Part shown: positions 6,012 through 58,148 of the stretch, in pieces
Position numbering within the stretch: the first letter of the stretch is position 1
Layout: each line of letters begins with the position of its first letter
Origin: an uncultured Sandaracinaceae bacterium
GTDB lineage: Bacteria; Myxococcota_A; Polyangia; Polyangiales; JAFGIB01
NCBI GenBank assembly: GCA_964450715.1
Contig: CAYVFC010000003.1
Location: forward strand, 5,407 to 69,406
Length of the DNA stretch: 64,000 bases
Reading direction: 5' to 3'
The notes under the pieces: model-generated
Databases searched by the model: none
What the model was told of the DNA's origin: nothing
Seen by the model: the letters and a program-made list of their open reading frames with translations, nothing else
Translations under genes and position numbers: made by a program

Positions 6012-6869
6012 ATGGCTAAGAAGAGGGAACCTGAAGACGGGCGGAAGAACACCGTCGCGCGGGAGCCGGATCCCCGCGAAGCGCGCTGGCTCGATCGACG
6101 CAGCTTCCTGATGAGCGCGGGCAAGTACTCGGCTGCCGCGGCCGGTCTGCTCGCCGGCGCGCCGACCCTTTTCAGCGGCTGTTTTTTCGGCAAGAGCGAC
6201 GACGACCAGAGCGATGCCAAGCCGATCGAGCGCTACCAGCAGGAGGCGGTGCCGGCGATCATGGACGCGGACACCGGAGCCTCGCTGTCCGATGGCGAGG
6301 ATGCGGTCTACGAAATCTCCATCGAGCAAGCCGGCGACTACATGTTGACCGTCTCGTCCGAGAGCACCTTGCCGGAAGCAGACGCGGTACGGGCCTTTTT
6401 GCTCGAGGAAGACGGCGACGTGATCTGGTGGGAAGATATAAGGGCAGGTGCTACCTATACCGAAGGGTGGGAGGGCCTGCACTCGGGCATTTATTACCTG
6501 GTCATCGAGAGCCAGACCGACTCGGTCAAGGTCGTCTTCACCGTGACCGAGCAGAGCGGTAGCGGCGAGGGCGGCACGGGCGGTTCGGGCGAAGGGGGCA
6601 CGGGCGGCACCGGCGAGGGCGGTAGCGGCGAGGGAGGCACCGGCGAAGGCGGTAGCGGCGAGGGAGGTACCGGCGAAGGGGGCACGGGCGAGGGCGGCAG
6701 CGGCGAGTGGGACGACTACTCGGACTGGGTCGACAGCGCCTGGACCAACAACACCTGGTCCGACAGCTCGGGCTGGAAGGATGCGGGCAGCGGCACCTGG
6801 GTGGCCTACTCGGATTCCTGGTACGCCGGCGAGTGGGACGACGGCTGGCTGAACTACGGCTACTACTGA
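6012..6869 (+). CDS. Tat-signal lipoprotein with a PPC-like beta-sandwich, a (GEGG[ST]G)n linker and a Trp/Tyr/Asp-rich C-terminal tail
   Basis: ORF track, 285 aa, with AGAGG upstream. The twin-arginine motif is DRRSFLMSAG, followed by an h-region and lipobox LFSGC. The PPC-like pattern is GDYMLTVSS...GIYYLVIES. The last 54 residues contain 9 W, 6 Y and 9 D. Confidence 0.75.
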   Translation: MAKKREPEDGRKNTVAREPDPREARWLDRRSFLMSAGKYSAAAAGLLAGAPTLFSGCFFGKSDDDQSDAKPIERYQQEAVPAIMDADTGASLSDGEDAVYEISIEQAGDYMLTVSSESTLPEADAVRAFLLEEDGDVIWWEDIRAGATYTEGWEGLHSGIYYLVIESQTDSVKVVFTVTEQSGSGEGGTGGSGEGGTGGTGEGGSGEGGTGEGGSGEGGTGEGGTGEGGSGEWDDYSDWVDSAWTNNTWSDSSGWKDAGSGTWVAYSDSWYAGEWDDGWLNYGYY

Positions 6870-41140: not shown

Positions 41141-41836
41141 ATGGACGCGTTTGACCAGGATGCCCTGAACAGCTTCATCATCGACAACGGCGTCATCGGT
41201 TTCTTCCCCGAGGGCAGGACGCTCAAGTCCGGAAGGTTCTCTTATTGGTATGCGAACTGCCGGAACCTGGCCTCGAGCGTCGGGCGGATCGACCGTACCG
41301 CCGATTTCCTCATCGCCTTTCTGGCCGCGCGCAGCCTTGTCTGCGACTACGTATACGGGGTGCCGGCCGGCATTACCGGTTTGGCCACCGTGGTCAATTA
41401 CAAGCGGGGGATGGCCGGTGATCGCGAGCACCGGGTGGTGATAGGAAGGGAGAAACCCAAGCAGCACGGCGACCCTCGCGACCGGTACTTCATCGGAAAG
41501 GTCGAGCCGGGCGACCGGGTGGTGGTGATCGAGGACGTGACCACCACCGGCGGCTCCATGCTCAAGAGCCTCGGAGCCCTGGCCGAGGCCGGGGTCGAGG
41601 TGGCGGCAGTGGTCTCGATCGTCGACCGGATGGAGAGGCGGGACGACGGCAAGAGCGTGGCCGAGTGCGTGCAGCAGAGAGGATCGGTCTACCACTCGAT
41701 GACCGACGCGGATCAGCTCATCCCGCTGGCCATCGCCCGGTACCGTCCCGACGCGGATTTCCTTCGGCAATTCCAGCAGAGGTACAACCAGTACGCGCTG
41801 AAAACGATCGAGGTGGCGCCCAGGGAAGGTTCCTGA
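41141..41836 (+). CDS. pyrE: Orotate phosphoribosyltransferase
   Basis: ORF track, 231 aa. The PRPP-binding motif is RVVVIEDVTTTGGS. The stop overlaps the pyrF start (ATGA-type overlap). Confidence 0.85.
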   Translation: MDAFDQDALNSFIIDNGVIGFFPEGRTLKSGRFSYWYANCRNLASSVGRIDRTADFLIAFLAARSLVCDYVYGVPAGITGLATVVNYKRGMAGDREHRVVIGREKPKQHGDPRDRYFIGKVEPGDRVVVIEDVTTTGGSMLKSLGALAEAGVEVAAVVSIVDRMERRDDGKSVAECVQQRGSVYHSMTDADQLIPLAIARYRPDADFLRQFQQRYNQYALKTIEVAPREGS

Positions 41837-42591
41837 TGGTGGAGCTGAGCGAACGCGAACGGGAAGCCCGCAAGAAGCTCTGCCTTCCCCTGGACGGCCT
41901 GCAGACGATTGGGCAGGTCGAACAGCGGATCGAAGAGCTCGCGCCCTTGGTGGGGCTTTTCAAGATCGGCAAGGAGTCCTTCGTCCGTTTCGGCCCCGAG
42001 GTCGTCCGCCTGGTGCAGCGGCGCGGCGCCGAGGTCTTCCTCGATCTCAAGTTCCACGACATTCCCAATACGGTCGCCGGGGCCGCGCGGGCGGCCGCCG
42101 AGCTGGGCGTGTTCCTGTTTAATGTCCACGCCTCGGGCGGCCTGGAGATGATGACGGCGGCGGTCCAGGCGGCCAGGTCGGTGGCCCTCGGCGGCGGTGC
42201 GCCGCCGGCGAGGGTGGTCGCGGTGACGGTCCTTACCAGTCTTGATCGGGGTATACTCAACGGCGAGCTCAGGGTCGAAGGCTCCGTGGAGGAGCAGGTA
42301 CTGCACCTGGCCCGCCTGGCGGTGCGGGCGGGGTGTGACGGTATCGTCTGCTCGGCCGCGGATTTGCGGGCGATCCGGCCGAGCCTGCCCGAGGGCTTTC
42401 TCTACGTCACCCCGGGCATCAAGGGCCCCGCCACCGCGGCCGGGGCGGACCAGAAGCGGGTCTTCACTCCCGGCAAGGCGCTGCGCGCCGGCGCCGGCAT
42501 CCTGGTGGTGGGCCGGGCGATCACCGCCGCGGCCGACCCGGTGCAGGCGGCGCGCGAGGTGCTGCGCGACATGAGCGAAGATGCGCTCTAG
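41836..42591 (+). CDS. pyrF: Orotidine 5'-phosphate decarboxylase
   Basis: ORF 41665..42591, with start MVELSERE at 41836. Motifs are FKIGKE, FLDLKFHDIPNTV and ILVVGRAI. Confidence 0.9.
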   Translation: MVELSEREREARKKLCLPLDGLQTIGQVEQRIEELAPLVGLFKIGKESFVRFGPEVVRLVQRRGAEVFLDLKFHDIPNTVAGAARAAAELGVFLFNVHASGGLEMMTAAVQAARSVALGGGAPPARVVAVTVLTSLDRGILNGELRVEGSVEEQVLHLARLAVRAGCDGIVCSAADLRAIRPSLPEGFLYVTPGIKGPATAAGADQKRVFTPGKALRAGAGILVVGRAITAAADPVQAAREVLRDMSEDAL

Positions 42592-44263
42592 GGATAGTAT
42601 AATAAAATACTTGCTGAGCGAGGAGATCATCTTCGCCACCGTGTCCGGGATCCTGACCACCAAGCCCGAGCTCATCCGGCTGGTCGATCGAACCATCCCC
42701 CAGATCGGGATCATCACCACCAAGAGCTACCAGGTCCTGCCCAATCCCGGGAACCGGGAACCGATCATCGTAGAAGCCGGGGTGGGAAACTTCGGAAACG
42801 CAGTTGGGCTGCGCAATCCCGGTATGGAGGCCGGAAGCCGAGAGCTGAGCCGGTTCGAGCTCAGAGCGCTGCTCAACGTATCGCTTTCAGCCAGCTGCCC
42901 CGAGGACTTCGTCATTCTGGCGGAGAAGTTCGCCGATATAGCCGACCTCCTGGAGCTGAACTTTTCCTGCCCCCACGCCCGGGAGGGCTTCGGCTCCAGC
43001 ATCGGCTCCGACGCGCGGTTGGTAGGGCAATACCTGACGGTCATACGACGCGCGACCGACGCGGTTCTCTTTGCCAAGCTAACGCCGAACGTCGAGAACA
43101 TCGGCGAGATCGCCCGCGCGGCGGTGGCGGCCGGGGCGGACGGGATCGTCGCCATCAACACGGTCGGGCCCGAGCTGTACCTGGAAGAGAGCAGCGGAAA
43201 ACCGCTTCTCAACAACCCGCGGGGCCACCGGGGCGGCAAGTCCGGCGAGTGGATCCGTGAGATCGCCCTGGAGAAGGTGAGGGAGATCCGGCGGGCGGTG
43301 GGCGATGGCGTTCCCGTCATCGGCATGGGCGGGGTCACCTACGGGCAGGACGTCCGGAACATGATCTCGGCCGGGGCCAATGCGGTGGGCATCGGCAGCG
43401 TCCTGGCCCGGATCGAACCGGAAAAGCGGCCCGATTACTTCGCGGCGCTCATCGCTGACGTCGAAACCGGGAGCGATGCCGCCGGCGCCTTCGTCTCTCG
43501 GCAGCGGCTGGGACACTACAGGCCCTACCGAATCGCGCGCATCGAGGAGCACGGCCCGGATCTGCGGGTGTTCGAGCTCGACGGCACGCTCGACTACCGA
43601 GCGAGCCAGTTCGTCTTCATCTGGCTTTCGGAGATCAGCGCGGAGAAACCCTTTGCCGTGGCCGGCTCCGATCCCTTGACGTTTATCATCCGCAAGCGCG
43701 CTTACCATCCGGCCGAGAACCGGGGGCTTTTCACCCACGAGATCTTCCAGAAACGGGTCGGTGACCGGCTCTTCGTCCGGGGACCGTACGGCCGGCCCGC
43801 GCCGGTTACCCGCAAACCCCGGGCTTGCCTGGTAGTCGGGGGAACCGGGCTAGCGGTAGCGCCCGGGCTGGTTCAGGAGTTGGCCGAAGCCGGCAAGGAC
43901 GTCGTCGTCTACTATGGGATCGCCTCTCCCGAACAGGTCGCCTTCCGCGAGTCTATCGAGCGATTTGCCAGGTATATCCCGGTAGCGGATGAAGGCGTCA
44001 TCGGTCGGGTGCTACAGGTAATGCAAGCCGATCTGCAGGGCGAGCCGATCGGAGAGTTCTGCTTTTACAACATAGGCCCCGAGCCCATGATGAAGGCCGC
44101 TGCGGAGATCGAGCAGAAGCTGGGCGCCAGCGAGATCTACCTGTCGCTGGAGACCAACACCATGTGCGGCTACGGCATCTGCGGCGAATGCGAATGCGGC
44201 GGGAGGCTGCCTTGTCGGCAGGGGACCTTTTTTGACTACGAGTTCCTGGTCGGCCGCCTCTAG
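42581..44263 (+). CDS. pyrD: Dihydroorotate dehydrogenase class 1B catalytic domain fused to a PyrK-like FAD/[2Fe-2S] electron-transfer domain
   Basis: ORF track, 560 aa. The N-terminal half has LELNFSCPHA (Cys base) and GIVAINT. The C-terminal half has FVRGPYG, LVVGGTGLAVAP and CGYGICGECEC...C. It overlaps pyrF by 11 nt. Confidence 0.8.
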   Translation: MRSRDSIIKYLLSEEIIFATVSGILTTKPELIRLVDRTIPQIGIITTKSYQVLPNPGNREPIIVEAGVGNFGNAVGLRNPGMEAGSRELSRFELRALLNVSLSASCPEDFVILAEKFADIADLLELNFSCPHAREGFGSSIGSDARLVGQYLTVIRRATDAVLFAKLTPNVENIGEIARAAVAAGADGIVAINTVGPELYLEESSGKPLLNNPRGHRGGKSGEWIREIALEKVREIRRAVGDGVPVIGMGGVTYGQDVRNMISAGANAVGIGSVLARIEPEKRPDYFAALIADVETGSDAAGAFVSRQRLGHYRPYRIARIEEHGPDLRVFELDGTLDYRASQFVFIWLSEISAEKPFAVAGSDPLTFIIRKRAYHPAENRGLFTHEIFQKRVGDRLFVRGPYGRPAPVTRKPRACLVVGGTGLAVAPGLVQELAEAGKDVVVYYGIASPEQVAFRESIERFARYIPVADEGVIGRVLQVMQADLQGEPIGEFCFYNIGPEPMMKAAAEIEQKLGASEIYLSLETNTMCGYGICGECECGGRLPCRQGTFFDYEFLVGRL

Positions 44264-44320: not shown

Positions 44321-45613
44321 TTAGTCGTCGAAGTCGCCTTCGGGCCCCTTGTCCGTGTCGAGCTGGGCGGCGCGCTCGATGATCTTCTCGCGCGACCACT
44401 CCGAGGGGTTCTCGAGGCGGCCCACCTTGGGACCGGGATCGTAGCCATTGACCTGCAGGATGTTCTCCACCACCAGGGGGGCGGTGTCCGCCGCGTCGAA
44501 GACATCGGTAAGCAGCGTGTAGACGAATCGCTCCACCGCCCCGGCCATCCGCTCGCGGACCTCGGCCTGCAGCCCTAAAAGCCGGTTCTCGAAGGGCAGG
44601 TTCAGCTTCTTGTAGTCGCCCGCCTTGAGCCCCTTGGACTCGGCGTGGGCGACCATTTCTTTCCAGACCTCGTCGGTCACTCCGTTGCCCTGCACCTTGC
44701 GGAGCCGGCCCTCTTCCAGGATGGCGTTGCCGAACTCGTTGACATCGACGCCCCAGGATAGCATCTGCAAAGCGGTGGCTACGTTGGCCTTGGTGGTGCG
44801 CGTCTGCTCGGCGATGGCCCGCAGCCGTTCCGAGTTGTTGCCCGAGGTGCCGTGCTGGGCACCGGAAACGCCGTAGGGCTCCAGCGCCTGGTGGACGGAC
44901 GCGGTCAGCCCTACGTCGATGCCGGCGTCGCTCTGCTCGATGCCGTGCGTGGTGCCGTTGTTGAGCGCGATCCAGTCGGGGAAGATGCCGTGTGCGTTCA
45001 GGCCCTGGATGAGGAAACGGGCCTCTGCGGGCGTGGAGAGCCCCGCCGCTCCTTTGATCTCGCCCACCTCGGTTTCCAGCCCGGCCCAGCTCGGGATGCA
45101 GGGATTGATCTCGATGTTGGCTGAAAGGTTGTCCGCGTCCGGCTGGTGGGAAGCGTCGACGGCGATGGAGGTAATACCAGCATCAAACAGCGACGGGATC
45201 TCGGTCTTGGCCCATTCCAGGTCCTTTGCGTTTTTGATCCCGTAGTGATCGGCGTGGACCGCCACCGGGACGGTGATCCCCAGCTCGTTGCAGGTGCCGT
45301 CGACCATGCGGGCCATGTTCCAGAGGCTGACCGCACAATAAGCGGCCGCTCCGCCCTCGGACTTGGCTATCTCGATGATGATGGCGGCGTTGGCCCGCTG
45401 GGCGGCCTGCAGTGCGCCGCGCATGACGAAGTAACTGCGGGCGTTGGCGGCGATGGTCATGCATTTGCCCTTGGCAATCATGGCCCGGTCGATGAACTTT
45501 CCGCTGACGATCAGGGCTTGGGAGCCGGGGAAGAGTCGCTGGACGTTGGGGGGACGGCCGATTTTCAGGGCGTTCTTGAAGGCGTTCTTGGAGATCTTTT
45601 TCCTTTTCGGCAT
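44321..45613 (-). CDS. fba: Class II fructose-bisphosphate aldolase family protein (long form)
   Basis: ORF track, 430 aa. Motifs are VAVHADHYG, NNGTTHG and AQHGTSG. The RBS AAGAGGA lies upstream. Confidence 0.8.
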   Translation of the reverse strand: MPKRKKISKNAFKNALKIGRPPNVQRLFPGSQALIVSGKFIDRAMIAKGKCMTIAANARSYFVMRGALQAAQRANAAIIIEIAKSEGGAAAYCAVSLWNMARMVDGTCNELGITVPVAVHADHYGIKNAKDLEWAKTEIPSLFDAGITSIAVDASHQPDADNLSANIEINPCIPSWAGLETEVGEIKGAAGLSTPAEARFLIQGLNAHGIFPDWIALNNGTTHGIEQSDAGIDVGLTASVHQALEPYGVSGAQHGTSGNNSERLRAIAEQTRTTKANVATALQMLSWGVDVNEFGNAILEEGRLRKVQGNGVTDEVWKEMVAHAESKGLKAGDYKKLNLPFENRLLGLQAEVRERMAGAVERFVYTLLTDVFDAADTAPLVVENILQVNGYDPGPKVGRLENPSEWSREKIIERAAQLDTDKGPEGDFDD

Positions 45614-45644
45614 GAATTCCTCTTAAGTATAGATAAATTAAATT

Positions 45645-45672
45645 AAAAAAACCGGCACCCCCGTGCCGTTTT
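45645..45672 (-). terminator. Bidirectional intrinsic terminator, stronger on the minus strand
   Basis: A7, then CGGCAC (45653-58), CCCC, GTGCCG (45663-68), then T4. On the minus strand the hairpin is followed by T7. It lies 32 nt upstream of the fba start codon. Confidence 0.5.
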
Positions 45673-45742
45673 GTATGCGAGTGTGGCAGCAGGGGGAAAG
45701 ACGCCCGCGTTCACAAGGTTCGGGGCGCCGCCGGTTATTTTG

Positions 45743-45748
45743 ATTATA
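45743..45748 (-). promoter_or_regulatory. Perfect TATAAT -10 box (minus strand) about 90 nt upstream of the terminator
   Basis: The minus strand reads GTGTTGCGGTATAATC. The -35 is weak. No ORF follows. Confidence 0.25.
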
Positions 45749-45998
45749 CCGCAACACTCACCAGGGAAGAAGGGCCGTCCATATCGGATAGCGCTTTTTT
45801 TATAGGCCGAGGCATCTTTTTTTTCATCGTTCCCAGGCAGGGTATCGGTTTTCGGCCCGGAGCGATTTTTCCGTTTTTACGGCTCTTTCCTGCGAAGCGC
45901 CACCTCTTTTTTCATTTCGAGGAAAATTAGAAAATAAGCTCGCAGCCTTTTGAGATAACAGGCAAAAGGGGTAAAACCATAATCGGTTTTCGTTCGCG

Positions 45999-46013
45999 GG
46001 CACGAGCGTTGCA
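45999..46013 (+). promoter_or_regulatory. Sigma-54 type -24/-12 promoter motif, copy 1 of 3
   Basis: gGGCACGagcgTTGCAt compared with the consensus TGGCACG-N4-TTGCW. Confidence 0.5.
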
Positions 46014-46043
46014 TGGGCGAAACCGTTTTCGATTTCGCTTCCG

Positions 46044-46058
46044 GGCACGCGCGTTGCA
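46044..46058 (+). promoter_or_regulatory. Sigma-54 type -24/-12 promoter motif, copy 2 of 3
   Basis: gGGCACGcgcgTTGCAt, 45 bp after copy 1 within a tandem repeat of about 46 bp. Confidence 0.5.
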
Positions 46059-46089
46059 TGGGTCGAAACCGATACTCATGTCGCTCCGG

Positions 46090-46104
46090 GGCACGAGCGT
46101 TGCA
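46090..46104 (+). promoter_or_regulatory. Sigma-54 type -24/-12 promoter motif, copy 3 of 3
   Basis: gGGCACGagcgTTGCAt, 46 bp after copy 2 and about 64 nt upstream of ATG 46168. Confidence 0.5.
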
Positions 46105-46167
46105 TGCATTCAGCATCCCGTTTCGTGTGACGGTTTTCGATCGCGAGCGACAGGGAAGGAAGATTCG

Positions 46168-47160
46168 ATGGACGAGGTCTCGACGCGACAGGCGCGGATT
46201 CCCACCTTGCACGTGGTAGCGGACTCGATTCCGCTGGCTCACTACCGGGCGATGAAGGCGGTATGGGAGCAAGGGATCTCCATGCGCACCGAGTACGACC
46301 GCCGCGGTCGGAACGGCGAATTCATCGATCCCCCGAGCCGAGAGGCGCGCGTGCTGGTCGAGGTCACCCAACCCTACGCCCAACCGCGCTTTCCGCCGGT
46401 CTCCTTTTGCGAGATCGGGGCCTATATCGCCGAGGTCATGGGCCTGAAGGATCACTACGTGGTGCCCATCGACGAGTTGAAGAAGTGCAAGGACGGCGAG
46501 CTGACCGCTACCCGCTGGCCTTATACCTACCACCAGAGGCTCTTCGCCCATCCGGCCGAGGACGGATCGGTCGTAGACCAGATGGAGCTGGCGGTCGGGC
46601 GCGTGGCGACCACTCCGTATAGCCGCCGGGCCGTGGCCTCCACCCCGGTGCCCAACCTGGACGTCTTCCTCAAGGAGGACATTCCCTGCCTGCGCGAGGT
46701 GCAGCTCCGCTGCCCCCTGGACGAGAGGGGCAACCGCGTGCTCAACATGAACACGGTCTGGCGCTCGCGCGACCTGTACAAGGCCTGGGCGGACAACGTG
46801 ATCGGCATGACCTTCCTGATGGGAAAGATCGCGCGCGACCTCGAGCAGAGGACCGGCGAGAGGGTCCGCGTGGGCAGTTACGCCGATTACAGCTTCTCGC
46901 TGCACATCTACGGGCAGGACTTCGCGGCCGTGGGAGGGGACGCGGACAGGGGGCTCAAGAGCTTCTTCGACAACTTCGACGAGCGGAAGATCCTTGAGCG
47001 CTCCATGACCAGCGAGCGCGCGCGCGACCTGCTTATCCTGCCGCAGCTCGAGGAGTTACGTACCGAGGCCAAGATAAAGGAGTGGAAGCTCGACGACCGG
47101 GCTATCGCGCTGCTCGATAGCCTGATCGAAGAGCTGAGCAGCGGCAGGGTCCTGCCCTGA
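46168..47160 (+). CDS. Thymidylate synthase (ThyA-fold) family protein, divergent
   Basis: ORF 46009..47160, with start MDEVSTRQ at 46168 after GGGAAGGAAG. ThyA-like motifs are YSRRAV (the SRR), IPCLREVQL (P-C nucleophile), WRSRDLYKAWADNVIG (RS.D...N) and SLHIYGQD (HiY). Confidence 0.6.
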   Translation: MDEVSTRQARIPTLHVVADSIPLAHYRAMKAVWEQGISMRTEYDRRGRNGEFIDPPSREARVLVEVTQPYAQPRFPPVSFCEIGAYIAEVMGLKDHYVVPIDELKKCKDGELTATRWPYTYHQRLFAHPAEDGSVVDQMELAVGRVATTPYSRRAVASTPVPNLDVFLKEDIPCLREVQLRCPLDERGNRVLNMNTVWRSRDLYKAWADNVIGMTFLMGKIARDLEQRTGERVRVGSYADYSFSLHIYGQDFAAVGGDADRGLKSFFDNFDERKILERSMTSERARDLLILPQLEELRTEAKIKEWKLDDRAIALLDSLIEELSSGRVLP

Positions 47161-47175
47161 ACCCTCCTCGAATTT

Positions 47176-48789
47176 TTACTCCGCGGCTCCGGCGCTCGCC
47201 TGCTTGCGCAGAGCCTTCTTGGCCACCGCTCGCACCGTGGCGTCCTCGTCGTCGGCGGCTTTCTGCAGCGCCTCGGCGAACGCATCCGGGTCCAGCTTGC
47301 TCATGGCCCGCACCGCGTAGTAGCGGACCAAAGAGCTCTCCGCCCGGCTGCCGGTCTCCAGCTGCTCGGCGATGGGCTTGCGGGCCTCGTCCGAATCGGC
47401 GTCCTTGTACTCCTGCATTAGGCGGTCAAAGGTCTCGCGGTCGGCGTTTCCCTCTCCGTTCTTGGTGTACACGCCGCTGGGAGAGGAGGGCCTGCTGGGC
47501 GGCGGGATGCTGCCCGTCGCGGGGGGCACGCTGATCGAACCGCGGGCGGCCGGACCGGCGGGCGGTTGCACCGCGCCCCGACTCAACGCCGAGGTGTCGA
47601 GATTCAGGTCGGGCTTGCGCCCCGATCGCCTGCGCACCGGGCTCTCGGTCATACCGGTGAGCGTGTGGGTGCGGAACAGGTCCAGGCTCTCGATCTCGCC
47701 CAGATCCAGCGCCGGGATCTCCTTCTGCAGCTTCTCCCGGAGCGCGCCGCCCTCGCGCTGGGCGTTGGCTACCATCTGCTGCACCCCGTCGGGCAGCGAG
47801 TGCGAGGAGGCGAGCAGGCGCCAGGTCACCGGAAGTGACTTGTTCTCCATCGACCTGTAGACGCCCAGATAGATGGCGCCCCCGCCGGTTTCGTCCTTGA
47901 GCTGGTCGTTGACCTGCTCGAAGACCGAGAAGGGGGTCTCCTTCAACGTCTCCTCGTTGGCCTCCAGCACCAGCCCCAGGTAGGAGACGCGCTCCAGCGA
48001 CGCGCCCGCGGGCATCAGCGAGCTGTACTGCATGTTTTCGCGCACCGCCTGCATGACCGAGTCCACCGTCACCTTGGCGAGCTCGCCCTCCCCGTAGTTG
48101 AGCAGTCCGCCCGAGAGCAGTATGGAGCGGAAGTCCTCGCCGTCCAGGGGACGGATGGCTGTGACCTGCTCCCGGTCGTTGAGCCCGTTCAGCACGTCGA
48201 GCGGGGCGAGGATGGCCGAGTTGATCTTCTCGTAGTAGCGGTCCAGGGAGACGTCGCCGTGCACCTGCGAGAGCTGCTGATTGTCGATCAGGATCCAGCC
48301 CAGCAGCGGGGTGCTGGTCAGCGAGCTCACGGCTCGTACGGCGTTTACCTTGGCTATGCCGCTCTCGTGCTCGTGCGGAAGCGTGGTCAGCGCGATCATC
48401 GGCAGCGAGAGGTCCTTCAGGGTTTCAATCAGCTCGCGTAGCGCCGAGCCCGTGCCCCCGCCCAGCCCGGCCGTCAGCAGCACCGCGTCCGCTCCGGCGG
48501 CGTGGGCCGAGACCGCGCTTCGGACGCGTTCCGCGTGTTGCTGAATACATTCATAGCCGTAGTTCAGGTCCGAGCCCGCTCCATCGTAGCCGTCGATACC
48601 GATGTAGATGCGCTGCTCGCTCGGCACGTTCAGGTGCGCCCCACCGGGCGCCAGCGAGGCCAGATCGGTATGAGCGGTGTTGAGCGCCAGCGCGCGATAG
48701 CCCCGGCGGTAGAGCTCGGCGGCCAGGTTGCCCCCGGCTTGCCCCAGACCCACGGCCGCGATTTCCAGAGAACGATTAGCGGGTTTCAC
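47176..48789 (-). CDS. FtsZ/tubulin-superfamily GTPase paralogue with a Pro-rich linker and a HEAT-like C-terminal extension
   Basis: ORF track, 537 aa. The GTG start follows TAGGAGG. Motifs are IAAVGLGQAGGNLAAE (G1), ALNTAHTDL, GAGSD, VLLTAGLGGGTGSA (the tubulin signature GGGTGS) and PLDGEDFRSIL (T7-like). The C-terminus reads DEDATVRAVAKKAL. Confidence 0.8.
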   Translation of the reverse strand: MKPANRSLEIAAVGLGQAGGNLAAELYRRGYRALALNTAHTDLASLAPGGAHLNVPSEQRIYIGIDGYDGAGSDLNYGYECIQQHAERVRSAVSAHAAGADAVLLTAGLGGGTGSALRELIETLKDLSLPMIALTTLPHEHESGIAKVNAVRAVSSLTSTPLLGWILIDNQQLSQVHGDVSLDRYYEKINSAILAPLDVLNGLNDREQVTAIRPLDGEDFRSILLSGGLLNYGEGELAKVTVDSVMQAVRENMQYSSLMPAGASLERVSYLGLVLEANEETLKETPFSVFEQVNDQLKDETGGGAIYLGVYRSMENKSLPVTWRLLASSHSLPDGVQQMVANAQREGGALREKLQKEIPALDLGEIESLDLFRTHTLTGMTESPVRRRSGRKPDLNLDTSALSRGAVQPPAGPAARGSISVPPATGSIPPPSRPSSPSGVYTKNGEGNADRETFDRLMQEYKDADSDEARKPIAEQLETGSRAESSLVRYYAVRAMSKLDPDAFAEALQKAADDEDATVRAVAKKALRKQASAGAAE

Positions 48790-51123: not shown

Positions 51124-51604
51124 GGGAAGTGGCAAGCCCTCACGATTCTACACATCTTCAAGGGTACCGGATGAAAGGCGGTCCTACCCCGGTGATCGCG
51201 TCCAAGCAGGAACTCGCCGGTAGAATCGATGCAGGAGCCGGGCGGGTATAGCCCGTCGACGCTCCGGCCAGCGTTACCTCGGAGGGGATCGCCACTGCTT
51301 TTCTGCGAACAAAAAGCCGTTCGGCAGGGTATTGCACTCTTTTTCAGTCGCGCGCCGGGCCATACCCGCCCGGCTCCGCAGGCCGCACTTCTCGGATAGC
51401 AGCGCGACGCCGGCCTGGCGCGGACGGTCCGGGGCCGGCCGGCGGGGGCGTCCCGCGTGCCAACCGCCCCCGAATAGTGGGGCTATTTCGAGGAGGAACG
51501 ACGCAGCAGATGCGCCCGCCCCGCAAGCGAGGCGACGGGAGTTGCATTTTGAGCCGGGAACTAACTAGATGTGTAGAATGATTAGGGCAAGCCCTTCCCC
51601 TACG
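51124..51604. repeat. About 480-bp non-coding element bounded by about 33-bp imperfect inverted repeats (MITE-like)
   Basis: 51124-51156 (GGGAAGTGGCAAGCCCTCACGATTCTACACAT) compared with the reverse complement of 51569-51604 (...GGGAAGGGCTTGCCCTAATCATTCTACACAT). The interior shares about 60 bp with 3758-3816. It contains no credible ORF. Confidence 0.35.
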
Positions 51605-52577
51605 TCAGCTCTTCCAGGACCTCGGCCGCGATTTCGGCCACGTCCGGATTTGGATCCTCGAGCAGCCGCCGTACCGCTGGCGCGGCTTCTCGGGAGCCGA
51701 TCTTGCCAAGCAGGTCGACCGTGTCGCCTCGCAACGCCGCGTCCTCCGAGCCGAGCGCTTCGCACAGCCCGCCGACGATGGCACCTAGCGCGCCCGGGCC
51801 CTGCTCGAGCAACTGCTCGGCAGCCAGCAGCAGGCCCATGCGGCTACTGGTGGTGCTGCCCTGCCACAGGGCCAGAAAGGCCTCCGGGCCACCCGGGTCG
51901 CCGATGAGCGCCAGCGCCCCCGCGATCCGCTGGGTCTGCAACAGCGACTGCAGGTGGCGACGGCGGTAGTCGGCGCTGCCTCTGGAGAGAACGATCTCGG
52001 CCAGTCCCCGGGCCGGCTCGACCCCGGTCAGGGCCAGACCGCCGTCGATCACCGTCAGCGGAACGGACCGTACCTCCAGCTCGCCGGCCAGAGCGGTGAA
52101 GCGCTGAGCGTCGATCACGAAGACCGAGACGCGCTTGCTGGCCAGCGCCAGCTCGTTGGCGGCCCTGACGGCCTGCGGGCAGTGCGGGCACTCGGTGGCC
52201 ATGAAGACGAACAGCTCGGCCGGAGCGGGCAGCGCCCGCAGGCGCTCCACCAGCTCGACCTGGAGGCTGGGGGGATATTCGGCCGCGAGCGCTTCCACGA
52301 ATGGGGCTGCTTCGCGGCCCTCGGGAAGCGCCAAGTAGTGGATGTCGCCGCGGCCCGGGCCGGAGAGGGTCAGCGCCGGCCGGGCCGGTAGATTCCCCGA
52401 TTCCCCTTCGTGCAGCACCGCGCCTCCAGCCGCGGCAGCGGCGACCGCTTCGGCTACGCTTTTCAACGCCGCGCCGAGCTCGGAGCCGTCCGGCGCCTGG
52501 TGAAAATGCAGCTCGAGCGGCGGAACGCGGCCAGCGAGCGCCTGGCCGATACGCTGCAGATCCCGTTTGGCGAGCAT
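51600..52577 (-). CDS. Thioredoxin-fold (glutaredoxin-like, CPHC) protein with C-terminal HEAT-like repeats
   Basis: ORF track, 325 aa. Motifs are FVFMATECPHCPQAV and LLEDPNPDVAEIAAEVLEEL. Confidence 0.7.
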   Translation of the reverse strand: MLAKRDLQRIGQALAGRVPPLELHFHQAPDGSELGAALKSVAEAVAAAAAGGAVLHEGESGNLPARPALTLSGPGRGDIHYLALPEGREAAPFVEALAAEYPPSLQVELVERLRALPAPAELFVFMATECPHCPQAVRAANELALASKRVSVFVIDAQRFTALAGELEVRSVPLTVIDGGLALTGVEPARGLAEIVLSRGSADYRRRHLQSLLQTQRIAGALALIGDPGGPEAFLALWQGSTTSSRMGLLLAAEQLLEQGPGALGAIVGGLCEALGSEDAALRGDTVDLLGKIGSREAAPAVRRLLEDPNPDVAEIAAEVLEELT

Positions 52578-57044: not shown

Positions 57045-58148
57045 ATGCGAGCCAGCGCGCAGTTCGATCGAGGCGAAGCGCGGCGGCCCGGAGCCGTTCA
57101 TCCGGGTGGTGCGGAGGTGACCGCGTGCTTGCTCTTGGGCCTCTGCTCGCTCTGGGTCGCCTGCGCGGCGCAAGAGACCGGCATCGACGACGCCGGTGCG
57201 AGCGGCGAGGGGGGCGGCGCGGCCGCGACCGGCACGGCTGACGGCGGCGCTGGCGCAGGCGGGACGGACGCTGCGGCCGGCAGCGGCGCGCCTCCGGAGG
57301 ACGACCCCACGGTCGAGTCCCTGTCCGGCAACGGACCCTACGGGTACGAATCGCTTCTCGGGCAGGACCGGTTCAACCCCGAGGGATTTCCCATCGCCGA
57401 CAGCGCCTTTCTTTCGGCTACCCTCTACTATCCGATCGACGCCCCGACTCCTTTCGGGGCCGTGACCGTCTGTCCCGGTTTCACCGAATCGCAGGCCGAC
57501 ATCGGCTGGTTCGGGCCTCTGCTGGCCTCCTGGGGATACGCGGTGCTGACCATGGACACGGCCAGCAGCACCGATTCCCCTCCGCAGCGCGCGCTGCAGC
57601 TGATGGCGGCGATCGAGACGCTGAAGGCCGAGAACGACCGGAGCCAGAGCCCCCTGTACGGAGCCATTGACGCATCGAAGCTCGCGCTCATGGGCCACTC
57701 CATGGGCGGCGGCGGAACGCTGATCGCGGCCGATGCGAACAGCTCGCAATTGAAAGCTGCTATTCCAATAACTCCCTATTCCGGCGCGGTCGGGGGCGGC
57801 GCCGGCACCTTCCCCAACATTACCGTCCCCACCTTGATTCTCGCCGGCCAGCTGGACGGGATCGCGCCGCCCGCCCTGAACGCCTTACCTTTCTACCAGA
57901 GCATTCCGAGCACGACCCCCAAGGCCTATGTCGAGCTGGCCGGCGAGCCGCACGGCTTGGCCAACGGATCGGCGGACGGCAGCTGCCCGTCGAGCAGCTC
58001 CTTCTCCGGAGGTTGCGGCGCGCACCACGATATCGTCGGCCGTCTCGTCGTCAGTTGGCTGAAGCTGTTCCTGGACGGCGACCAGCGCTACCGGCAGTTC
58101 ATCGCCGATGAACCGGCCTTTTCCAGTTTCGACACCACGTTAGATTGA
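57045..58148 (+). CDS. Cutinase/polyesterase-like alpha/beta hydrolase lipoprotein (actinobacterial cutinase / PET-hydrolase family)
   Basis: ORF track, 367 aa. The lipobox is LWVAC, followed by a Gly/Ala linker. Motifs are TLYYP, VCPGFTESQADIGWFGPLLASWGYAVLTMDT, LMGHSMGGGGTL (Ser), LAGQLDGIAPP (Asp), ELAGEPHGLAN (His) and SWLKLFLDGDQRYRQF. Confidence 0.85.
   Translation: MRASAQFDRGEARRPGAVHPGGAEVTACLLLGLCSLWVACAAQETGIDDAGASGEGGGAAATGTADGGAGAGGTDAAAGSGAPPEDDPTVESLSGNGPYGYESLLGQDRFNPEGFPIADSAFLSATLYYPIDAPTPFGAVTVCPGFTESQADIGWFGPLLASWGYAVLTMDTASSTDSPPQRALQLMAAIETLKAENDRSQSPLYGAIDASKLALMGHSMGGGGTLIAADANSSQLKAAIPITPYSGAVGGGAGTFPNITVPTLILAGQLDGIAPPALNALPFYQSIPSTTPKAYVELAGEPHGLANGSADGSCPSSSSFSGGCGAHHDIVGRLVVSWLKLFLDGDQRYRQFIADEPAFSSFDTTLD

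Follow-up and report, generated by a model that had tools for sequence, protein, structure and literature searches.

Three tandem sigma-54-type promoter elements, probably functional, upstream of a thymidylate-synthase-fold gene in Candidatus Hydrogenedentota

The window analysed here, a 64-kb stretch of DNA with a G+C content of ~65%, contains a 555-bp intergenic region (45614-46167) between two divergent genes: a class-II-aldolase-like gene on the minus strand (44321-45613, with its ATG at 45613) and, on the plus strand, a gene for a 330-aa protein with an archaeal-type thymidylate-synthase fold (46168-47160; PF00303), called the ThyA-like gene below. This region houses a tandem array of three nearly identical -24/-12 elements. 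On balance, and with somewhat better than even confidence, we read them from sequence and comparison as three functional sigma-54 (RpoN) promoters that would have arisen by tandem triplication of a 46-bp segment carrying a single ancestral promoter. The array is best described as a tandem form, unusual and maintained by selection, of a promoter class already known, its members being probable sigma-54 promoters. The closest reference-genome orthologues of the ThyA-like protein (mostly 63-68% identity) come mostly from metagenome-assembled genomes (MAGs) of Candidatus Hydrogenedentota, and the window is assigned to this uncultivated phylum.

The three repeats and their conservation

Tandem Repeats Finder resolved the array (45988-46106, plus strand) as 2.6 copies of a 46-bp unit with three -24/-12 cores (score 157, 84% matches), in agreement with the unit of about 46 bp, present three times, that an earlier sequence-only reading of this DNA had described. 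The same reading had placed three 11/12 matches to the sigma-54 consensus TGGCACG-N4-TTGCW at 45999, 46044 and 46090, all facing the ThyA-like gene, and exact motif search and scoring confirmed them: GGCACG-N4-TTGC occurs at these three positions on the plus strand and nowhere else on either strand of the 64 kb (0.31 matches expected). The corresponding 16-mers (GGGCACG-N4-TTGCATG) begin at 45998, 46043 and 46089 and all point to the ThyA-like gene; each agrees with the consensus at 11 of 12 positions, the first position being G instead of T throughout. By chance, matches of at least 11/12 are expected ~0.002 times per 555-nt intergenic strand (from shuffles) and 0.53 times per 128 kb. The distal element, P1 (GGGCACGAGCGTTGCA; 45998-46013, plus strand), has its GG at 45999-46000 and its GC at 46011-46012, with a predicted transcription start at ~46024 and a 5' untranslated region (UTR) of ~144 nt. 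For the middle element, P2 (GGGCACGCGCGTTGCA; 46043-46058, plus strand), the predicted start is ~46069 (UTR ~99 nt), and for the proximal element, P3 (46089-46104, plus strand), which reads GGGCACGAGCGTTGCA and then TGC as in the relatives with a single copy, it is ~46115 (UTR ~53 nt). A ribosome-binding site (GGAAGGAAG; 46154-46162, plus strand) lies 5 nt before the ATG at 46168. The array sequence is base-identical in two independent Logan assemblies, so it is not an assembly artefact.

Set beside canonical sigma-54 promoters (glnAp2, nifH, pspA and Pu), the array displays every sequence-level property of the class that could be tested here. Its GG and GC stand one helical turn apart, and these invariant dinucleotides are exactly 10 bp apart in all copies of the window and in every copy of the five close relatives described below. 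CAC follows GG and TT precedes GC (11/12); the elements are co-oriented upstream of the gene, with predicted leaders of 53, 99 and 144 nt; and conserved blocks lie 45-175 bp upstream, in the usual zone of activator sites. The array departs from the canonical examples in that these have one copy whereas it has three near-identical ones at 45-46-bp spacing, in that the canonical consensus begins with T whereas its copies begin with G, and in that no site resembling those of integration host factor (IHF) is found at the array. To our knowledge, a thymidylate-synthase-fold gene is not a usual sigma-54 target either.

Five contigs with close relatives of the gene (L028-L032; ThyA 82-89% identical) were obtained from a large protein database, and all five show an element of the -24/-12 kind at -79 to -81 relative to the ATG. 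Four of them (L029-L032) have one copy each, and L028 (89%) carries a set of three, located at -172, -126 and -80. The single copies read GGGCATGGGCGTTGCT in L029, which carries a C to T change at -20, GGGCACGAGCGTTGCA in both L030 and L031, and GGGCACGACCGTTGCA in L032; in L028, P1 and P2 both read GGGCACGCGCGTTGCA and P3 reads GGGCACGAGCGTCGCG, a form weakened to 9/12. Nine of the ten copies are intact, and these differ from one another only in the N4 spacer, at W (where A becomes T, still W) and, once, at -20 (C to T), the last being a common variant of real sigma-54 promoters such as Pu. In the alignment the 20-mer GGGGCACGAGCGTTGCATGC is conserved, while the ~60 nt from the 20-mer to the start codon are essentially unalignable, as expected where a 5' UTR free of constraint follows a promoter; the start itself, ATGGACGA, is conserved in all close relatives.

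To judge from these sequences, one copy is the ancestral state. In position, P3 corresponds to the lone ancestral promoter (-79 to -81), and it has kept what lies downstream, both the GCATGC and its own distance of -80, while P1 keeps the upstream context, namely the ancestral distance to a conserved block (block d) described in the next section. The triplication is common to the window and L028, in the same 45-46-bp register, and therefore predates their split. When the two are compared, core 1 is 90%, core 2 95% and core 3 85% identical, against 56%, 48%, 77% and 74% for the spacers and UTR, the flanks of core 1 standing at 48-56%. Pooled, 55 of 61 core positions are identical, as compared with 87 of 130 (67%) in spacers and UTR (Fisher p = 6e-4; cores 1 and 2 alone against the spacers, p = 3e-4). 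Since the cores are better kept than the spacers and UTR, the extra copies are evidently under purifying selection.

A neutral history, with one working promoter and the other copies as recent, functionless by-products of replication slippage, is distinctly unlikely in the light of these numbers. One copy does suffice in four of the five relatives, and the proximal copy of L028 has decayed to 9/12, so that not every copy is always needed; this decayed copy shows some redundancy among the copies. But the triplication is older than the split of the window from L028 (ThyA 89%), the identity of the spacers has since fallen to 48-77%, that of cores 1 and 2 only to 90-95%, and all three cores of the window are still 11/12.

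Roles other than that of a promoter were weighed on the same comparison, and we regard them as extremely improbable: those considered were the iterons of an origin, a riboswitch or other structured RNA in the 5' UTR, and a dispersed repeat resembling repetitive extragenic palindromes (REP) or miniature inverted-repeat transposable elements (MITE). Direct repeats beside AT-rich DNA are superficially iteron-like, and a gene of folate or nucleotide metabolism would suit a riboswitch, but in four relatives the element occurs only once, and its distance from the ATG is fixed. Iterons and a replication origin are excluded by that single copy and by ordinary chromosomal metabolic neighbours, with no replication genes seen nearby; a GC-skew minimum near 29 kb, considered as an origin, is a mere divergent operon boundary. 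An RNA element in the ThyA leader was likewise rejected, its plus-strand fold being no better than that of shuffles (z = -0.57); Rfam gave no match to this leader at the gathering threshold, and a sensitive scan of 45550-46250 returned noise only (DnaX, P11 and GHRLOS; E at least 0.3). Nor is the unit a dispersed repeat, an outcome that the sequence-only reading had kept in view: a 28-mer of core plus flank has no further copy in the window at up to 3 mismatches, the 18-mer core has no match in a scan of viral contigs, and in the relatives the element is found only before the ThyA-like gene.

Upstream DNA and the sigma-54 machinery

Upstream of the array the DNA is AT-rich. Between 45795 and 45934, T runs (at 45795, 45817, 45849, 45866, 45874 and 45907) are followed by A runs (at 45923 and 45931); the T runs include T7 at 45795-45801, T8 at 45817-45824, T5 at 45866-45870 and again at 45874-45878, and T6 at 45907-45912. 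The GC fraction of this region is 0.46, whereas no other intergenic region of the window falls below 0.52; with all relatives included it is 0.46-0.47, and the offsets of the T and A runs from the first -24 element are conserved in the relatives. The description of an AT-rich region with T runs in the sequence-only reading is thus sound, save that one run sits at 45817-45824 and not near 45826. Its proposal that the T-tracts are phased, and the DNA bent, did not survive analysis: the T-run centres reach a phasing value R of 0.67 at a period of 10.0 only, falling to 0.11 at 10.5 and 0.37 at 11, and this best value is equalled by ~7% of random placements (p ~0.07) and is not significant. In the relatives R ranges from 0.28 to 0.64, and the AA/TT periodicity of the upstream region is no better than that of shuffles. 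The proposed IHF-type delivery region fared no better, the IHF core WATCAR-N4-TTR having zero matches in the whole window, although this consensus may not fit the IHF/HU proteins of the phylum. In addition, a divergent promoter and leader on the minus strand (next section) share the AT-rich DNA with the array, so that it cannot all be credited to the sigma-54 promoters. The T runs at 45795-45824, the first of the series, are placed ~60-90 nt upstream of the predicted start of that leader and hence may belong to its promoter.

Inverted repeats, which the earlier reading had proposed to seek between 45780 and 45990, were found in two conserved blocks, and these are the best candidates for activator sites. 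Block c (CGGTTTTCGGCCCGGAGCGATTTTTCCGTTTTTACGGCTCTTT; 45846-45888) forms an invariant run in the alignment and contains a small inverted repeat, CGGAG/A-N6-TTCCG. Located at about -175 to -135 from the P1 start, it is a candidate upstream activator site; its TTTTAC-GGCTCTTT segment is partly complementary to block d. The latter (38 bp; 45941-45978, just upstream of P1) is almost invariant, with 36 of 38 positions identical to L028 and 91-97% identity in L028-L032, and it carries the inverted repeat CCTTTTG (45946-45952)-N10-CAAAAGG (45963-45969). It is also readable as a weak sigma-70-like promoter, TTGAGA (45950-45955)-N16-TAAAAC (45972-45977). Its position is about -85 to -47 relative to the P1 start, and it is a candidate for an activator-binding site or, equally, for a basal sigma-70 promoter. 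A metagenome scan with the invariant block AGCCTTTTGAGATRACAG yielded 42 matches, all of them attributable to chance, each lacking the rest of the block. As a separate observation, a 20-nt motif, CGGTTTTCG-N-GAGCGA, occurs at 45846-45865 (in block c) and at 46131-46150 (in the 5' UTR, just before the ribosome-binding site). These two copies, 80% identical, bracket the promoter array, and shorter CGGTTTTCG / CGAAACCG copies flank each repeat unit; the downstream copy is common to L028 and is not evident in the single-copy relatives.

Block d lends itself to a different account of the region, in which it would be a sigma-70 promoter (+1 near 45985) and the 20-mers would be transcription-factor sites, for instance for a roadblock repressor, that resemble -24/-12 elements by chance. 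The block is nearly invariant in the six sequences (TTGAGA in all six, TAAAAC in five); the N4 spacer and flanks of the 20-mer are conserved beyond what sigma-54 requires; and distant orthologues seem, by eye only, to carry sigma-70-like upstream hexamers. We nevertheless find this account quite improbable. An 11/12 sigma-54 match in a conserved operator would arise by chance with a probability of only ~0.002, and the substitutions follow sigma-54 degeneracy. The operator would also have to be non-symmetric, the 20-mer having no dyad or internal direct-repeat symmetry (the repeat listing gives none within a core); a comparison with boxes of the NrdR, LexA and CRP/FNR types, made informally by eye, found no resemblance. 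The TAAAAC hexamer, moreover, lacks the highly conserved final T of a -10 hexamer, for which reason it was missed by the promoter scan.

Sigma-70 and sigma-54 might also act together, with a basal sigma-70 promoter in block d and the array as an inducible sigma-54 component, so that a low constant expression is boosted. This would refine the sigma-54 reading rather than replace it, and we consider it conceivable though rather unlikely. It draws on the same conservation of block d and would remove the difficulty that a possibly essential gene of dTMP synthesis depends on a promoter class of the all-or-none kind. Tandem promoters that mix sigma-70 and sigma-54 are documented for glnA (cited in PMC2995071), and a sigma-66 and sigma-54 pair for Chlamydia (PMC7482065). 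On the other side, the sigma-70-like element is weak and its use hypothetical.

Returning to the array as sigma-54 promoters, sigma-54-dependent transcription is strongly implied in Hydrogenedentota. Regulators of the ntrC/glnG/norR type were reported in nearly all representative members of the phylum in a MAG study (PMC10866078); in the open-access literature we found no link of Hydrogenedentota to rpoN or sigma-54 besides annotations of enhancer-binding proteins (EBPs). The Hydrogenedentota contig L004 contains an EBP gene (Sigma54_activat, AAA_lid_14 and HTH_8 by Pfam), whose full-length product, P0121, has 348 aa and an intact GAFTGA loop. This loop is also intact in six of seven other NCBI-labelled Hydrogenedentota EBPs, the seventh (P0166) reading GAFTDA. 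All retrieved EBPs of the phylum are short (~320-410 aa) and PspF-like, with an AAA+ domain and a Fis-type helix-turn-helix. The resemblance is to the PspF-pspA system, where the EBP has no receiver domain and the Hydrogenedentota proteins are similarly short, combining an AAA+ domain with GAFTGA and a Fis-type helix-turn-helix; unlike that system, the window of the array encodes no such EBP and shows no PspA-like partner. The earlier designation of the repeats as sigma-54-type promoters therefore gains comparative support from their fixed position, from changes that respect the consensus, from the conservation of the cores and from the EBPs of the phylum, while the dependence itself is what we infer.

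Two further observations concern sigma-54-like sites elsewhere. In L004, the P0121 gene lies ~3 kb from the ThyA-like orthologue and ends near 6270; after it, on the same strand, comes CGGCATG-N4-CTTGCT (6135-6120, minus strand; 10/12), and ~45 nt past this site is the ATG of a small open reading frame that looks receiver-domain-like by eye. The EBP gene and this site are a possible sigma-54 unit in the phylum. In L034 (71% identity, low G+C), AGGCAC-N5-TTTGCAT (2690-2675, minus strand; 10/12) lies beside the ThyA-like gene and points away from it, ~80 nt upstream of a Response_reg-RnfC-RnfD operon.

Several points weigh against the sigma-54 reading of the array. Searches with the RpoN box, GAFTGA and PspF/RpoN tblastn found neither rpoN nor an EBP gene in the 64-kb window, so that sigma-54 dependence in this genome is something we infer; the same searches of the retrieved Hydrogenedentota loci gave the L004 EBP only, and no rpoN. 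Matches of at least 10/12 number 24 in ~247 kb of mostly Hydrogenedentota sequence, against 17 +/- 4 expected, which is a weak excess. ThyA-like orthologues of no more than 72% identity lack the element in their upstream DNA, which makes it young and clade-specific; the orthologous loci at 45-72% identity have neither the element nor synteny and for that reason are uninformative about it. The retention of the N4 spacer and core flanks beyond the needs of sigma-54 may reflect an additional constraint on the same bases, for instance from a DNA-binding protein, and the weak TTGAGA-N16-TAAAAC of block d could be the real promoter or an additional one. Finally, exclusive sigma-54 control of the sole thymidylate synthase, if it is the sole one, would be unusual.

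The divergent leader and neighbouring genes

On the minus-strand side of the intergenic region, the aldolase leader element (45636-45752, minus strand) comprises a conserved TATAAT at 45748-45743, ~60 nt of conserved RNA, a terminator and a ribosome-binding site before the ATG at 45613. The conserved segments of the RNA are CCGGCGGCGCCCCGAACC...UUUCCCCCUG, also given as CCGGCGGCGCCCCGAAC ... UUCCCCCUG; the intrinsic terminator has its stem at 45668-45653, followed by U7, and lies ~30 nt before the aldolase ribosome-binding site. Counterparts occur on the minus strand of L028 (732-850 and 366-482), L029 (692-809), L030 (268-384) and L031 (1254-1370), those of L028 being two tandem copies, each with its own terminator. 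The leader RNA folds better than shuffles (z = -2.26): a conserved CCCCCUG pairs with the terminator arm, and an alternative pairing looks like an antiterminator. Rfam gave no match to it, either for the window at the gathering threshold or in the sensitive scan of 45550-46250. Covariation analysis found no compensatory pairs in six similar sequences, these being too few and too similar. We regard the leader as a candidate for a new riboswitch or attenuator, a matter separate from the sigma-54 question.

The ThyA-like protein itself is highly conserved across Hydrogenedentota, with 753 homologues at E of 1e-60 or less, nearly all of ~330 aa. Against TIGR03283, the NCBIfam model of methanogen-type thymidylate synthase, it scores 94 bits, below the cutoff of 175, and a relative in the PDB was not found at the sequence level. 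It retains a Pro-Cys motif (IPCL) that resembles the motif around the catalytic cysteine in thymidylate synthases and is putatively equivalent to it. As the gene that follows is convergent, the promoters described here serve the ThyA-like gene only. This neighbour (47176-48789, minus strand) encodes a protein of 537 aa in which an N-terminal tubulin/FtsZ GTPase domain is combined with C-terminal HEAT repeats, and its adjacency to the ThyA-like gene is kept in close relatives. Near it, at 51600-52577 (minus strand), lies a gene for a thioredoxin-domain protein that likewise has HEAT repeats.

On the other side, genes for a phosphoribosyltransferase-domain protein (41141-41836, plus strand) and for a 560-aa fusion of a PyrD-like dihydroorotate dehydrogenase with a PyrK-like electron-transfer protein (42581-44263, plus strand) directly adjoin the aldolase-like and ThyA-like genes. 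The neighbourhood may be pyrimidine- or nucleotide-related. Farther away, at 57045-58148 (plus strand), a 367-aa protein gives a strong PET-hydrolase-like match (PF12740, E = 1e-63).

A model for the array and its meaning

The sequence history suggests the following course. The ancestral state was a single promoter ~80 nt before the ATG and directly downstream of the 38-bp block d, as it still is in four relatives; the promoter core together with ~26 bp was then triplicated, before the window organism and L028 parted from their shared ancestor. After this event P1 held the distance to the upstream blocks and P3 that to the start codon, selection keeping the cores while the spacers drifted. In operation, RNA polymerase-sigma-54 would wait on the cores as closed complexes until an ATP-dependent EBP, possibly a short PspF-like one, binds block c, block d or both and remodels them. 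The predicted outcome is a set of nested transcripts with 5' UTRs of ~144, 99 and 53 nt and, should the three starts be used simultaneously, a total output above that of one promoter.

Tandem promoters as such are familiar. The rrn P1/P2 promoters are tandem sigma-70 arrays in which, as in the present array, several starts feed one unit, presumably raising or diversifying its output; they differ from it in belonging to another promoter class, in not being mutual sequence duplicates and in their regulation. Closer to it are glnAp1/glnAp2 of Escherichia coli and the sigma-66 plus sigma-54 arrangement of Chlamydia, where tandem promoters including a sigma-54 one precede a single gene (PMC2995071, PMC7482065). 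The members of those pairs use different sigma factors and are unrelated in sequence, whereas in the array a single sigma-54 promoter has been duplicated. In the open-access literature we found no description of identical sigma-54 promoters in tandem.

A more speculative extension, which we think unlikely though worth stating, is that the array is a selected 'promoter amplifier' in which one enhancer-bound activator fires three pre-loaded sigma-54 closed complexes, giving a graded or burst-like high output. As 45-46 bp correspond to 4.3-4.4 turns, the three complexes would then lie on different faces of the helix. If this were true, an enhancer-dependent signal would control an archaeal-type thymidylate synthase and, through it, the supply of dTMP and the replication of DNA; a promoter class that is normally all-or-none would deliver a graded output; and selected tandem identical sigma-54 promoters would constitute an architecture that we have not found described. 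The suggestion in the sequence-only reading that the copies might serve as a sigma-54 holoenzyme sink drew no specific support from the analysis.

The understanding of sigma-54 is unchanged by these findings, which add a tidy and testable variant and no new principle. If all three promoters fire, they would represent natural promoter-copy amplification within the enhancer-dependent sigma-54 class. With one copy in four relatives, three in two genomes and one copy in decay, the array and its counterparts form an evolutionary series for copy number and enhancer distance. For the phylum itself, the array is a first concrete conserved candidate for a sigma-54 promoter in Hydrogenedentota, and it suggests signal-dependent control of a thymidylate-synthase-fold gene there.

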